64,000 nt of DNA from an uncultured Sphingobacteriales bacterium (GCA_964542585.1 CAZIUI010000011.1:5831-69830); one strand, 5' to 3'; positions 50,790 to 59,310 are shown, counted from the first letter of the stretch. The notes: generated from the letters alone by a model not told the origin. Numbers and translations: made by a program.

Positions 50790-51392
50790 ATGGCAATGAA
50801 TTCGCCCTTTGAAAGAACAATTCGGCGGCATCATGTAAAATGGTTGACCTACGGATTGTTCTTACCACTGGTAATCGTTTCAGGTGGCCTTCTGTTCTAT
50901 ACCTGTTGTGGTAGTTTAAAGACAGTATTGAGTAATTGGCCGTCCAGCATTGTAGAGCAATTAGCTTGGGTGGCAGGTTTCTTTTTTGCTTATGTGTTGG
51001 CAATAGGACTTCATGAGCTTATACATGGGCTTACGTGGATTGCCTTAATTCCCTCAACATGGAAAGTGCTTAGGTTCGGCTTTTTCAAAAACAGCAAAAC
51101 CCCTTACTGCCATTTAAAAATTTCTGTTAACCGGAATGTTTATCTCAGCGGGGTGGTTATGCCTGGCCTATTGTTGGGCGTAGTCCCTGTTTTAATAGGC
51201 CTTTGGCATGGTAATATATTTTTATGGCTTTTAGGGCTTTTTTTAACCTATGCCTCTTTGAATGATGCTGTTATGGCAGGCTATCTGCTACGTGAAAAAT
51301 CTGGTAGTTTAATTAAAGACCAACCCAATGCTTTGGGCTATTGGGTTTACCCGTCAGATAGTAGTTTTTCCAACAACAATGAAAGAGCTTAG
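50790..51392 (+). CDS. Membrane protein with HExxH motif (DUF3267-like putative zincin)
   Basis: 4-5 TM segments; HELIHGLTW motif at membrane interface. 4-bp overlap (convergent) with first lipoprotein paralog. Confidence 0.45.
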   Translation: MAMNSPFERTIRRHHVKWLTYGLFLPLVIVSGGLLFYTCCGSLKTVLSNWPSSIVEQLAWVAGFFFAYVLAIGLHELIHGLTWIALIPSTWKVLRFGFFKNSKTPYCHLKISVNRNVYLSGVVMPGLLLGVVPVLIGLWHGNIFLWLLGLFLTYASLNDAVMAGYLLREKSGSLIKDQPNALGYWVYPSDSSFSNNNERA

Positions 51393-51970
51393 GGTTTTAC
51401 AGCTTGGAAAGTGCCGTTTAAAACTATGGTTTGGGTACCATCTCCTAATTTAAGGGCCTTTAATTCGCCCTTTATTCGTTTATCTTCATAGGAGTTAATA
51501 ACTAACGTTCCCTCTGCTCTGGAAGTTGTCTGGGTCTCGTAAATACTGCCGCCACTGGTTTCTAAGATAGCGGCTACTGCTTTATCAGGATTGGTTTCTA
51601 AGGTTAGTTTTTTGACTAAAAAAGCTTTCGGGGTTAAGCTGGAAGCCTTGTCCAAAATGTATAAGGTCATTTTAACAGAATCCTTTGCCGCTTTACCTCC
51701 GGTTATTCTAATATTTGTTTGAAATGTCAAAGGACCCGGAACTTGATTTGAAGAATCTTCTAAAACCGTGAAAGTGGGTGAAAATGAGAAAACGTCATTG
51801 ATGGCACCCCTAATGCGAATATTTGCCTTACCTTTTGGGCCGGAATCACCACTGTTGTTGGTGTCGCAACTGCCCAGTCCGATACCCACTGCTAAGATTA
51901 ACAGGAGGATGAATAGGTTACCTTCCCCAAACCGCAGTTGGCTGTTTTTTATCAAGCTTAATCTAACCAT
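51389..51970 (-). CDS. Surface lipoprotein paralog P1 (single-module member of the array family)
   Basis: Lipobox IGLGSC then DTNNSGDSG; C-terminal signature ...INSYEDKRIKGELKALKL...TIVLNGTFQAVKP shared with five upstream paralogs. Start overlaps stop of the symporter gene by 8 bp. Confidence 0.6.
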   Translation of the reverse strand: MVRLSLIKNSQLRFGEGNLFILLLILAVGIGLGSCDTNNSGDSGPKGKANIRIRGAINDVFSFSPTFTVLEDSSNQVPGPLTFQTNIRITGGKAAKDSVKMTLYILDKASSLTPKAFLVKKLTLETNPDKAVAAILETSGGSIYETQTTSRAEGTLVINSYEDKRIKGELKALKLGDGTQTIVLNGTFQAVKP

Positions 51971-53774
51971 GGGAACGGTACACTTTCCTTAATGCCCAAA
52001 GCCCCACAATAAAAAAGGCTATTAAAGTGATTCCGATTATATTTTGGCTAAGTAAAAGATACCCAATGCCAAACATCAGGGCAAATGAAGAGGCCGCAGT
52101 CAGGCCCCATTTAAGCAACATTGCTTGAAGTGTACTGCTTTGTCTTTCTTGCGGAAGTAAATGCTGCGGCCAGAAACCAAATGGTTGAACCTTTTGAGCA
52201 AAGGCTTTTAACACCTCCTTATTTACCGGAGGCGTGAGCAAAGTAACTGTTACCGAAACCAATACGCTTCCAAGAGCACTAAAAAGCAGTAAGTATTCCT
52301 GTTTTTGTTGTGGGAAAAAGGCCAGGAAACCCAAGGCCATGATCATAGAAGTGCTAATGCCACTTATTTCAGTCCATGCATTGGCCCGCCACCATATCCA
52401 GCGTAAAATCTGGGGAAGGCCCATGCCGGCTCCCAGCGCAAAAAAGAACTTCCAGGCATCTCCTATGGATTCGATCTGCGTGGCAATTAGTACTGATAAA
52501 AGCGCCAGCCCTATCACCGTTAGCCGGCTCCGATTTACAAGTTGCTTGTTGGTCGCATTTGGGTTGATCTCCTGTTTGTAAATATCGTTGATCAAATAAC
52601 TCGCTCCCCAGTTGATGTGGGTGTCCACTGTACTCATGAAGGCTGCCACTAAGCTGGTGAACACCAAACCTAAAAGCCCCGGTGGTAGCAAAGCTTTCAT
52701 TAACAATGGGTAGCCCATTTCCCGATCTTGACCTACTTGGGCACCCGAGGGTAAATTGGCAGCAGGGTCGCCAAGCGGGAATATGACCAAGCAAACAAGC
52801 CCAATAAGCAACCAAGGCCACGTACGAAGTCCGAAATGGGCAAACATGAACCAAAAAGCCCCCTTTTCCGCATCTTTTTCTGACCGGGCCGTATTGATTC
52901 TTTGTGCTAAGTAACCCGACCCATCTGAAAAATACTGCCCCCACCAAAGTACACCTATGTAGATGAGGAAAATATCAAAAGGGAACAGGTTCCCATCCCA
53001 GGAGGGAAAGAATTGAAGTATTTCGCTGCTTTTGTCAGGGTAAATGTTGTGGAGTTGATCAACCAACCCGTTTAGACCACCCACATGGTTCACTGCTATC
53101 ACCGTGAAAATCACCGATGCGCTGATAGCCAATAAAAACTGCAATAGATCAGTGAGAATAACGCCACGAATGCCACCAATACTGCTGTAAACCATCACAA
53201 AAGCAAAAAGGACCAGGACTGTAAGGGTATTGTTAAGCTCGCCTAATAGCAAAAAATCCGGCCATTGCGTTTGGATGCTCGCAAACGTAGGTTCTCCTAA
53301 AAGCTGCGGCCACTTGATAAAAGGGGTGGTGATTTTGTTCATGGCTTTAAACACCCAGCCCATGACCACACCATTGATGATGATGCTTAAATAACCCGCT
53401 TTGAATAAACGTAGGAAACGCGCTGAAGCTCCGTCATAGCGGATGCCGATAAGCTCAACATCCGTCAGCACTTGGCTTGCGCTCCACTTGCGGGCAAAGA
53501 AGACCGTCATGGTAGCATAGGTGAGAATACTGCCCCACCATAGCCAATTACCGGCCAGTCCGCTGTTAGCAACAATACCCGTGATAGCTAGCGGGGTATC
53601 AGCTGCGAACGTGGTGGCCACCATGGAGGTGCCCAGCCACCACCAGGGTAGGGAGCGGCCGGCTAAGAAATAGGAATCCAGGTTGCGGCTGGCTAGCTTC
53701 CTAACCAGAAGCCCAACAACAAAAACAAAGGCAATGTAACCCCCAAGGATGCCCCAATCCAATGCTGTAAACAT
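51963..53774 (-). CDS. Sodium:solute symporter family (SSS) transporter
   Basis: 603 aa, ~13-14 TM helices, N-terminal GILGGYIAFVFVVGLLV...SLPWWWLGTSMVATTFAADTPLAITG typical of SSF/SGLT family. Confidence 0.8.
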   Translation of the reverse strand: MFTALDWGILGGYIAFVFVVGLLVRKLASRNLDSYFLAGRSLPWWWLGTSMVATTFAADTPLAITGIVANSGLAGNWLWWGSILTYATMTVFFARKWSASQVLTDVELIGIRYDGASARFLRLFKAGYLSIIINGVVMGWVFKAMNKITTPFIKWPQLLGEPTFASIQTQWPDFLLLGELNNTLTVLVLFAFVMVYSSIGGIRGVILTDLLQFLLAISASVIFTVIAVNHVGGLNGLVDQLHNIYPDKSSEILQFFPSWDGNLFPFDIFLIYIGVLWWGQYFSDGSGYLAQRINTARSEKDAEKGAFWFMFAHFGLRTWPWLLIGLVCLVIFPLGDPAANLPSGAQVGQDREMGYPLLMKALLPPGLLGLVFTSLVAAFMSTVDTHINWGASYLINDIYKQEINPNATNKQLVNRSRLTVIGLALLSVLIATQIESIGDAWKFFFALGAGMGLPQILRWIWWRANAWTEISGISTSMIMALGFLAFFPQQKQEYLLLFSALGSVLVSVTVTLLTPPVNKEVLKAFAQKVQPFGFWPQHLLPQERQSSTLQAMLLKWGLTAASSFALMFGIGYLLLSQNIIGITLIAFFIVGLWALRKVYRSHG

Positions 53775-53911
53775 GGAGCTACGGCTTTAATGAAACGGAG
53801 CTTGTAAAATTAGGCACAGCCTTCTGTTAAAGCACAATAAAAAAGCAGCCCATCAGTTTCCAAGCTGAAAGGCCGCCAGACTAGTAAAGACAACGGAGAA
53901 CTGCCGGGTTT

Positions 53912-58361: not shown

Positions 58362-58399
58362 TAAAAAGCCCGCTTAGGAAAATATAAGCGGGCTTTTTG
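58362..58399. terminator. Bidirectional intrinsic terminator downstream of P6
   Basis: Perfect 10-bp inverted repeat AGCCCGCTTA...TAAGCGGGCT flanked by AAAAA (5') and TTTTT (3'); on minus strand sits 27 nt after the P6 stop. Confidence 0.55.
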
Positions 58400-58425
58400 A
58401 AAAACTTAGAATTAATTAAATCATT

Positions 58426-59310
58426 TTAGTTGGTGGCAGTGAAAGTACCTCTAACGGTAACTTCATCCTCACTTTGGGCTGGGCTTAATACAACGTCAGT
58501 TAATTCACCTTCAACGTTACTACTATCATTCGTGTTTAAGCTTACAGTTCCTTGCCCAGTTGCCAACCAAGTGTTACCGCCGTATGTTACTGTCATAGAC
58601 GCATAGTTATCAGGAGTGTTATCACCGCCAATGTTACTTTGCATCACCACATCCAATTCTCCAGTGGGAGCATCGGCTGGAACAATTTGGATAGTGGCAG
58701 CGGATCCTTCCTGATTACCTAATCCAATATTTTTGTGGTTAACCGGCTGATCCAATGTCTCAAGGGTAGCTGTTCCAAAAGAAACGGTATCTTCAGCTGC
58801 ACCTGTTAAGGTAATTTGATTATCGGATCCACTACCGCCACCATCTTTGGATGCGTTAAACTCGCCATTTAGGGTGGCTGTGCGATCACCATTCTGTTCA
58901 GTCAGCTCAACATCATTAAGGGTACCAATGATCTTATTTTCATCATTCGTAGTAACTTCAACAGAGCCGCCTGTTCCTTGCCATACAGATGTGCCTACTG
59001 TTACATTTACAATTCCGTCTTGTCCAACATTGTAATTGCCGGTACCATTTTCAGGGACAGTAACACTGACAGAACTTGTGTCAGCAGACCAAGTGATTGT
59101 TATTGCACCTCCCTGTGAAGCAACTTGTGGTGCACCATCTGCATTAAGGTCTAATTCTACATCGCCGGATGTTGAGGCTTCAGCGCTGTTGTCACCAATA
59201 TCAGGGCCACCATTACCCCCATCATCATCACTACAGCTGGACATGGTCATGGGTGCCATTGCAACAGCACCAATCATCATTGTGTTAATAAGTAATCTTT
59301 TAATGGTCAT
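58426..59310 (-). CDS. Surface lipoprotein paralog P6 (two-module)
   Basis: Lipobox MTMSSC + SDDDGGNGG; modules ending ...VEVTTNDENKIIGTLNDVELT...TATLNGEFNASKD and ...VSLNTNDSSNVEGELTDVVLS...VTVRGTFTATN. Confidence 0.6.
   Translation of the reverse strand: MTIKRLLINTMMIGAVAMAPMTMSSCSDDDGGNGGPDIGDNSAEASTSGDVELDLNADGAPQVASQGGAITITWSADTSSVSVTVPENGTGNYNVGQDGIVNVTVGTSVWQGTGGSVEVTTNDENKIIGTLNDVELTEQNGDRTATLNGEFNASKDGGGSGSDNQITLTGAAEDTVSFGTATLETLDQPVNHKNIGLGNQEGSAATIQIVPADAPTGELDVVMQSNIGGDNTPDNYASMTVTYGGNTWLATGQGTVSLNTNDSSNVEGELTDVVLSPAQSEDEVTVRGTFTATN

Follow-up and report, generated by a model that had tools for sequence, protein, structure and literature searches.

A variable array of putative surface lipoproteins built from a DUF6252-like predicted barrel module in an uncultured Sphingobacteriales bacterium

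Introduction

Surface lipoproteins make up a large share of Bacteroidota genomes, and for the majority no function has been assigned. The question raised here concerns six such candidates, P1 to P6, encoded on the minus strand of a stretch of 64,000 nucleotides from an uncultured Sphingobacteriales bacterium (GCA_964542585.1, CAZIUI010000011.1:5831-69830; this whole stretch is called the window, and positions are counted from its first letter): what are these proteins, where would they reside, and do they form a system? The original prediction, made from the sequence alone, described six consecutive genes coding for lipoproteins of no named domain, and considered that they could represent a surface binding or capture system. 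All six open reading frames (ORFs) were recovered at exactly the coordinates predicted and all of them are intact, but they are not consecutive, P1 and P2 being split by a gene of the same strand that codes for a sodium:solute symporter (SSF) of 603 amino acids (aa). At 90% identity clustering, the six proteins are singletons, and their only source is one 87.7-kb contig at NCBI.

Taken together, the data presented below favour the view that these genes encode non-enzymatic lipoproteins tethered at the cell surface, most of them very acidic, which belong to a rare family restricted to one lineage and subject to birth-and-death evolution. This view is considered as the probable, although far from certain, explanation of the locus. 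For Bacteroidota, such an array is an ordinary kind of object.

Paralogy and module architecture

Pairwise BLASTP comparisons among P1 to P6 give E values from 1e-8 to 7e-32, and P1, the divergent member, is recovered by a profile built without P1-type sequences (57 bits, E 2.9e-10 for a library size of 1.84e9). Judged by these comparisons, the six ORFs are true paralogues. As had been predicted, they share a C-terminal signature, G-x-V-x-I-x-T-N-N-x-N-R-I-x-G-T-I-N-D-V-x-L ... N-G-x-F-x-A-x-K, which is found in all six proteins and, beyond that prediction, occurs twice in P2, P3, P4, and P6. These four proteins are therefore tandem duplications of one module of ~130 aa, so that the array holds ten modules.

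The strong divergence noted at the outset was borne out as well, since the ten modules are only 15-38% identical to one another and form a star-like tree. In the family alignment, strand 1 and the three final strands are the most conserved, and variability and indels gather in strands 3-5 and in the loops. At the DNA level, the paralogues resemble each other in the codons for the lipobox and the following DDD only, which argues against recent conversion; recent gene conversion was rejected on this ground. In terms of charge, the family is split: P1 and P2 are both basic, with a pI of ~9.2 (9.19 and 9.15, respectively), and P3 to P6 are very acidic, with a pI of ~4.05-4.12 and a net charge of -15 to -50. 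P3 is extremely rich in D, E, and N, as first described (20.7% D+E and 13.5% N, for a net charge of about -50).

Relationship to DUF6252

The claim that the module matches no named domain is correct in so far as no Pfam cutoff is reached: P6 scores 11.6 bits (E 0.33) on Pfam DUF6252 (PF19765), whose gathering threshold is 27.2 bits, P1 to P5 give no match to this family, and none of the six proteins matches it at the gathering threshold. A remote homology to DUF6252 was nevertheless detected. When a profile of the ten window modules (A1) was run with HMMER against 1.84 billion cluster representatives, 55 proteins were found at E<=1e-3, about ten of which were judged to be spurious or compositional repeat proteins (including LapA, Big_2, Kre9_KNH, and TPR). 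The true matches fall into three groups, namely close relatives with two modules or one, single-module lipoproteins of 160-210 aa with an S-C-x-D-D-D start, and three bona fide DUF6252 proteins. Two of the latter, P0045 and P0051, carry two domains each and score 54 and 51 bits, respectively, on PF19765; the third, P0036, consists of one array-family module followed by a DUF6252 domain. Finally, the hhalign comparison of a 60-module profile (A3) with five DUF6252 domains (A5) gave 96.2% (E 2.6e-9, 95 columns), the match spanning the three strands at the C terminus as well as the G-T-Y strand and leaving the N-terminal third unaligned. The module thus appears to be a remote homologue of DUF6252, and the transitive profile matches, the P0036 fusion, and the hhalign result together point to a separate family, uncaptured by current models, within a DUF6252-like superfamily.

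Besides, the array family appears to be rare and restricted to its lineage. A second search for protein homologues, with the 60-module profile, returned four proteins only. Pfam and NCBIfam searches of P1 to P6 gave sub-threshold matches only, all of them short (SPP1_Dit, aegerolysin, FtsH_ext, Mfa1, and NigD). Of the NCBIfam candidates, Mfa1 was rejected at 24.6 bits against a cutoff of 130, and NigD at 17.3 bits against a cutoff of 60, the match covering residues 5-73 only, that is, the signal peptide and linker. None of the profiles A1, A3, and A5 found a credible match among PDB sequences, and DUF6252 is mentioned in no paper of the literature searched.

Predicted fold

The AlphaFold2 (AF2) model of the P5 module, computed with a 60-sequence alignment, is all-beta, with 11 strands and one short helix (pLDDT 95.8, pTM 0.89). 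For mature P3, with its two domains, the model (pLDDT 85.4, pTM 0.54) displays two confident barrels, and its pLDDT falls below 50 in the first 8 residues and in the inter-module linker (residues 160-169). According to this model, the two barrels of P3 are independent of each other, as beads on flexible acidic strings.

The fold is predicted to be like that of the globular domain of the mycobacterial 19-kDa lipoprotein LpqH, possibly by convergence. Foldseek searches of the PDB and of the viral BFVD gave no match at E<=0.001 and did not recover LpqH. Moreover, hhalign of the A3 profile against the LpqH sequence (the query being identical to PDB 4zjm/7fds) was null, at 0.2%, and LpqH is absent from the HMM matches at E<=10. 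The resemblance is therefore placed at the level of the fold only.

Lipoprotein signal, acidic motif, and localisation

Lipoproteins were recognised by a positive n-region, a hydrophobic h-region, and a lipobox [LVI][ASTVI][GAS]C, cleavage by signal peptidase II (SPII) being judged by pattern. As predicted, a lipobox ends the hydrophobic signal in all six proteins (Table 1). The SPII-substrate pattern test is passed by each of them, P6 having Met at -3, like its orthologue P0004. From these patterns, we infer that the proteins are lipidated.

The side of the membrane on which they lie may be read from the residues that follow the Cys. In the lipoprotein export signal (LES), as defined by Lauber et al., at least two D/E come after a polar or positive residue near the +1 Cys, and surface exposure was shown to be driven both by SDDDD, the consensus of B. 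fragilis, and by SDDFE, that of F. johnsoniae (PMC5080379). In B. thetaiotaomicron, the LES takes the form CS(D/E)2-3, and the lipoproteins that carry an LES or are found in outer-membrane vesicles (OMV) are generally acidic, with a mean pI of 4.86 (PMC6222051). The original prediction saw a Cys followed by a poly-Asp run in all six proteins; this holds for P2 to P6, which have three or four acidic residues each at positions +2 to +6, and fails for P1, where the Cys opens the string CDTNNSGD and no such run is present. A rule asking for a polar or charged residue and then at least two D/E within +2 to +6 likewise retains P2 to P6 and leaves P1 out. As regards the match to the LES itself, when compared with the published forms K-(D/E)2, Q-A-(D/E)2, SDDDD, and CS(D/E)2-3 (PMC5080379, PMC6222051), P2 to P6 fit, P5 being the exact B. 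fragilis consensus, and P1 (DTNNS) does not. The sole other ORFs with a lipobox pattern in a crude screen of the 64-kb window, GldB and a probably non-lipoprotein protein of the type IX secretion system (T9SS), have zero or one acidic residue at these positions. In addition, S-C-x-D-D-D is the consensus start of 31 distant members of the family.

Since the +2 to +6 residues of P2 to P6 match functional LES sequences, these five proteins are most probably exported to and displayed on the cell surface through the LES pathway. By the same residues, the LES of P1 is weak or absent, and surface exposure of this protein is doubtful. The O-glycosylation sequon of Bacteroidetes, D-[ST]-[AILVMT], showed no enrichment over shuffles.

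Related loci and evolution of the array

Three syntenic relatives of the locus were compared: L003 and L005, which are Logan metagenome contigs, and L006, from an uncultured Sphingobacteriales metagenome-assembled genome (MAG; CAYYUA010000020.1), which is the nearest named relative. The flank on the PagL side, made of an enoyl-CoA hydratase gene, a PagL-like gene, and a 90-aa ORF, is common to the three loci. On the other side, the symporter gene is found at the same position in L005 and L006 (75% identity), and it is followed in L006 alone by a P1-like gene and those for the DUF3267 protein, the SPFH protein, and GldB. Within these flanks, L003 carries P5-like, P2-like, and P3-like genes in this order up to the end of its contig. 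In L005, a member of 176 aa precedes the 90-aa ORF, beyond which come a P5-like gene, a disrupted copy (69 + 125 aa), and the symporter gene. The order in L006 is a member of 191 aa, then the 90-aa ORF, genes resembling P6 and P3, the symporter gene, and finally the P1-like gene. Copy number, order, and content of the array thus differ from the window in all three relatives, while the flanks stay shared.

The flank proteins are 60-94% identical to those of the window, except for the DUF3267 protein. Array orthologues show lower values, with P3 as the best-conserved member (62-70%), followed by P5 (44-50%, in L003 and L005), P6 (43%, in L006), P1 (41%), and P2 (36%, in L003); P4 has no counterpart in the three related loci. 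The orthologues of P1 (P0021 and those of the loci L006, L015, and L016) are syntenic, and P0021, L015, and L016 keep the downstream neighbours. The distant single-module members, for their part, are solitary genes in unrelated contexts. The array, then, evolves by birth and death at a fixed chromosomal site.

In L005, the disrupted copy (5978-6565) is a family member split into two ORFs of 69 and 125 aa, being either an apparent pseudogene, which would directly attest that genes decay in the array, or an assembly error.

Wider searches added little to this set. A genome scan with signal-peptide patterns (A4) returned one true relative, L006, and L007 to L009, from Prevotella and Bacteroides, were rejected as relatives because they match in the signal peptide only. 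Two scans of metagenome contigs, one with peptides of the P3 orthologue and one with a degenerate DNA pattern for NN[DE]NR[IV]AGT, gave no further family member.

Transcription units

Exact TAnnTTTG boxes, which we take to be the -7 promoter consensus of Bacteroidota, precede P3, P5, and P6, and P2 and P4 have versions with one mismatch, the background frequency of the box being 0.45 per kb per strand. Each of the genes P2 to P6 is followed by a G+C-rich, terminator-like hairpin, and the spacers between them measure 170-380 nt. Owing to the hairpin after each gene and to the exact boxes before three of them, P2 to P6 look like separate transcription units. In P1, by contrast, a promoter-like element is lacking, and the first 8 nt of the gene overlap the end of the symporter gene, including its stop codon; P1 is therefore probably co-transcribed with the symporter gene, which would be its operon partner. 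A sigma-70 promoter scan gave no enrichment, that model not being appropriate for Bacteroidota, and Rfam gave no match between 50.5 and 60.5 kb.

As for the gene calls, public annotation starts P4 at the ATG of codon 4 (57278), which yields 321 aa, and P2 at the ATG of codon 9 (54853), which yields 313 aa; the longest ORFs are listed in Table 1.

Table 1. Positions in the window of the array genes, of their putative control elements, and of neighbouring features
Feature	Position	Strand	Description	Module positions	Lipobox and following residues
P6	58426..59310	-	294 aa, two modules; pI 4.05	58846-59190 + 58429-58827	MSSC, Cys26 (codon 59233-59235), then SDDDG
P5	57461..58042	-	193 aa, one module	57464-57898	LSSC then SDDDD
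P4	56313..57287	-	324 aa (longest ORF), two modules	56736-57149 + 56316-56684	LTSC then DDDDN
P3	55080..56069	-	329 aa, two modules	55518-55940 + 55083-55484	LSSC then NDDDD
P2	53912..54877	-	321 aa (longest ORF), two modules	54341-54751 + 53915-54334	LASC then DDDNS
P1	51389..51970	-	193 aa, divergent, one module	51392-51832	LGSC then DTNNSGD
Sodium:solute symporter (SSF) gene	51963..53774	-	603 aa; between P1 and P2; not a family member		
TAAGTTTG	59338..59345	-	exact TAnnTTTG -7 promoter-like box, 35 nt upstream of P6 start		
TAATTTTG	58072..58079	-	exact TAnnTTTG -7 promoter-like box, 37 nt upstream of P5 start		
TATATTTG	56106..56113	-	exact TAnnTTTG -7 promoter-like box, 44 nt upstream of P3 start		
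Terminator-like hairpin after P6	58363..58398	-	perfect 14-bp stem, then T-run; -25.6 kcal/mol		
Terminator-like hairpin after P5	57401..57434	-	then T-run		
Terminator-like hairpin after P4	56208..56243	-	then T-run		
Terminator-like hairpin after P3	55009..55040	-	-27.2 kcal/mol for 90-nt stretch		
Terminator-like hairpin after P2, before symporter gene	53839..53877	-	then T-run		
DUF3267 protein	50790-51392	+	putative zincin peptidase, membrane protein		
Spacer upstream of P6	59311-59975		665 nt, non-coding		
90-aa ORF	59976-60248	+	no Pfam/NCBIfam match		
PagL-like protein	60271-61389	-	372 aa, predicted outer-membrane protein		
GldB	48873-49907				
T9SS-secreted repeat protein	14264-23179	+	2971 aa; 22 PKD_4 repeats and CHU_C C-terminal domain		
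Unassigned ORF	3509-7939	-	1476 aa; no Pfam family at E<=1e-5		
Protein with Por_Secre_tail domain	808-2871	+	T9SS sorting domain		
Protein with Por_Secre_tail domain	38901-41861	+	T9SS sorting domain		

Neighbourhood in the window

The symporter matches Pfam SSF at 1.9e-38 and, in NCBIfam, the sss superfamily only; its nearest solved relative is vSGLT. One side of the array is flanked by genes for NadE, an outer-membrane protein (OMP) barrel, GldB, an SPFH protein, and the DUF3267 protein, and the other by the 90-aa ORF and genes for the PagL-like protein, enoyl-CoA hydratase, and a SIS protein. Farther out in the window lie cytochrome-c maturation genes, PGI, PGK, and T9SS substrates. The Por_Secre_tail proteins, together with GldB, mark the host as a gliding, T9SS-bearing member of the Bacteroidota. 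The 2971-aa PKD-repeat protein exceeds the array in size, so that the latter is not, as had been stated, the largest non-housekeeping block of the window.

Some neighbours deserve mention in their own right. The 90-aa ORF is 68-89% identical in L003, L005, and L006 and always lies at the edge of the array that faces PagL; since a family member stands between it and the PagL-like gene in L005 and L006, it is effectively embedded in the array. The PagL-like protein, more than twice the size of a classical PagL, matches Pfam PagL (lipid A 3-O-deacylase) at residues 113-203 only, and it adjoins the array in all relatives. It was rejected as an export partner, since this adjacency is confined to one lineage and distant members lack it. 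The DUF3267 gene is convergent with P1, the 3' ends overlapping by 4 nt, and its product is 35% identical to the L006 counterpart, far below the other flanking genes. The spacer upstream of P6 is AT-rich (~36% GC), holds several AT-rich inverted repeats that the related loci do not conserve, and has no Rfam match.

Proposed organisation and alternative explanations

Under the preferred explanation, each protein would comprise a type-II signal peptide, a lipidated Cys, a disordered tether of ~15-20 residues rich in D, G, and N, and then one (P1 and P5) or two (P2, P3, P4, and P6) copies of a module that would form a closed all-beta barrel of ~130 aa. Where two modules are present, their barrels would be joined by a second linker, disordered and acidic as well, as beads on a string. 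P2 to P6 would be exported by Sec, lipidated by Lgt/LspA, delivered to the outer membrane, and flipped to the surface by the LES pathway, and they would probably enter vesicles as well. At the surface, they would act as non-enzymatic binding or coat modules, to which P3 to P6 would add dense negative charge. Their fast diversification would proceed by the duplication, loss, and reshuffling of genes and modules and by quick sequence change in the barrel's N-terminal half and loops. P1, being basic, without a convincing LES, translationally coupled to the symporter gene, and conserved in position, is read as probably an older branch with a separate role, possibly facing the periplasm.

Several points weigh against this explanation. 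P1 lies outside the LES rule, and the rule itself was defined in Capnocytophaga and Bacteroides and not in the lineage of the host. P1 and P2 are basic, so that an "acidic coat" misfits the family as a whole. The five DUF6252 domains used with hhalign were drawn from proteins found by the window's own profile, two of the five lying outside the stretches matched. Furthermore, the likeness to LpqH may amount to convergence on a simple meander barrel, and the faster divergence of the array members could reflect relaxed constraint instead of diversifying selection. The behaviour of P1 and the foreign origin of the LES definition also speak for periplasm-facing outer-membrane lipoproteins with a structural or chaperone role in the envelope, the D-rich stretch being a mere flexible linker, as do neighbours that are envelope and housekeeping genes (GldB, SPFH, PagL-like). 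However, five of the six proteins match LES strings that are functional in experiments, one of them exactly, the motif is kept across the wider family in the 31 distant members, and fast divergence with copy-number turnover is typical of exposed proteins and not of envelope machinery; a periplasmic location of the whole family is hence deemed unlikely, although it is the alternative to be taken most seriously. Charge itself could be the function, in that P3 to P6 would mainly bind cations (Ca2+/Mg2+/metal) or form a hydration layer for which the barrel is a scaffold. Their low pI and high negative charge are in favour of this, as is the coincidence in P3 of the highest acidity and the best conservation; yet the basic P1 and P2 share the fold, the Pfam and NCBIfam searches of the six proteins revealed no recognised Ca-binding motif or family, and acidity is a general trait of LES/OMV lipoproteins (PMC6222051), which makes this option rather improbable.

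The idea of a capture system can be considered in its most concrete form, where the proteins would be substrate-capture accessories, like the SusE/F glycan-binding proteins or BtuG/BtuH, with the symporter as the uptake component. The overlap of P1 with the symporter stop codon and the maintenance of this pair in L006 fit such a role, as does the ability of small barrels such as the TbpB C-lobe, HtaA, and YceI to bind ligands. Nevertheless, the pairing is seen within one narrow lineage only and may be plain synteny, the symporter is an inner-membrane protein, and neither SusC nor SusD nor a TonB-dependent outer-membrane transporter occurs among the Pfam-scanned genes across ~33.5-63.8 kb of the window, a finding that also sets the array apart from Sus-like systems and polysaccharide utilisation loci, in which a SusC/SusD pair or a TonB-dependent transporter would stand alongside. 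A separate terminator follows each of P2 to P6, an exact -7 box precedes three of these genes, and the neighbours of distant members are unrelated. This accessory role is thus given a low probability, and the broader proposal of a multi-component capture system finds no support, as no outer-membrane partner lies nearby and the neighbourhood is conserved within the lineage only. Phase variation of an antigen array through invertible promoters, known from Bacteroides capsule and surface-protein loci, was suggested by a 17-nt inverted repeat, 94% complementary, that brackets the P6 promoter region (59286-59302 / 59768-59784), but this repeat is AT-rich in a spacer of ~36% GC and not conserved in L003, L005, and L006, one of its arms lies inside the P6 coding sequence, and no recombinase gene is nearby, so that the idea is very improbable. 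It is even harder to believe that the ORFs arose by chance or are remnants devoid of function: the disrupted copy of L005 could be quoted for it, whereas the six ORFs of the window and the orthologues in other genomes are intact, the family alignment gives very confident folds, and terminators follow P2 to P6 as promoter-like boxes precede P3, P5, and P6.

Significance

The preferred reading, that of a rare family of tethered surface lipoproteins, reveals no new mechanism or system, and its value lies in annotation and in a candidate for surface-proteome studies. What is new is the definition of a small family that no current model captures, tied to DUF6252 and provided with a confident predicted fold, from which a Pfam clan or a new family model could be seeded. 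Besides, the array clearly illustrates how LES-tagged lipoproteins undergo birth-and-death evolution while their site in the chromosome stays fixed.

Comparison with known systems

DUF6252 is one of the closest known families. Its domain has a similar length (~125-130 aa), proteins with two domains in tandem also occur (P0045 and P0051), and the conserved elements come in the same order (...G-T-Y... / G-x-V-x-I-T...x-I-x-G-T-F... / ...G-x-F). The two differ in signature, since DUF6252 has I-T...I-x-G-T-F-S-F where the array family has T-N-N-x-N-R-I-x-G-T-I-N-D-V.

The LES-tagged lipoproteins of Bacteroidota, such as SusG, MucG, and BtuG, resemble the array members in their lipobox Cys, their polar or acidic +2 residue, and the two to four Asp that follow, in being acidic proteins, and in the location at the surface or in OMV that is predicted for the array members. 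However, the genes for SusG, MucG, BtuG, and the like, which code for enzymes or binding proteins, stand next to those for SusC/D-like or BtuB transporters, whereas the array has no such partner, and the fold predicted for its module is unrelated to that of the known proteins. As to the Slam-dependent bilobed lipoproteins (TbpB, HpuA, and others), they are built from handle-plus-barrel lobes and need an adjacent Slam gene, whereas the array has neither a handle domain nor a Slam (DUF560) gene; the likeness to TbpB and HpuA is no better than to any small barrel, and the array modules are predicted to be independent of each other (pTM 0.54).

Finally, LpqH (PDB 4xin, 7fds, 4zjm) shares with the array members the arrangement of lipid anchor, disordered linker, and beta domain, with the same fold predicted for the module. 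It consists of a lipidated Cys, a disordered modified linker of ~40 residues, and a beta domain of ~110 aa, is enriched in vesicles, and has no defined native function for its globular domain (PMC5341126). It differs from the array proteins in having no detectable sequence kinship with them, in belonging to another phylum with another envelope, and in the size of the domain, the array module being ~30 residues longer. One speculative view, to which little credence is given, would unite DUF6252, the array family, and LpqH in one ancient lipoprotein-barrel superfamily of diderm Bacteroidota and mycobacteria with a role at the surface or in vesicles, expanded here into receptors or decoys of fast turnover. 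Were this true, their roles could lie, for example, in the response to phage or predators or in adhesion, and the array would become a system in which the native function of the LpqH fold could be approached.

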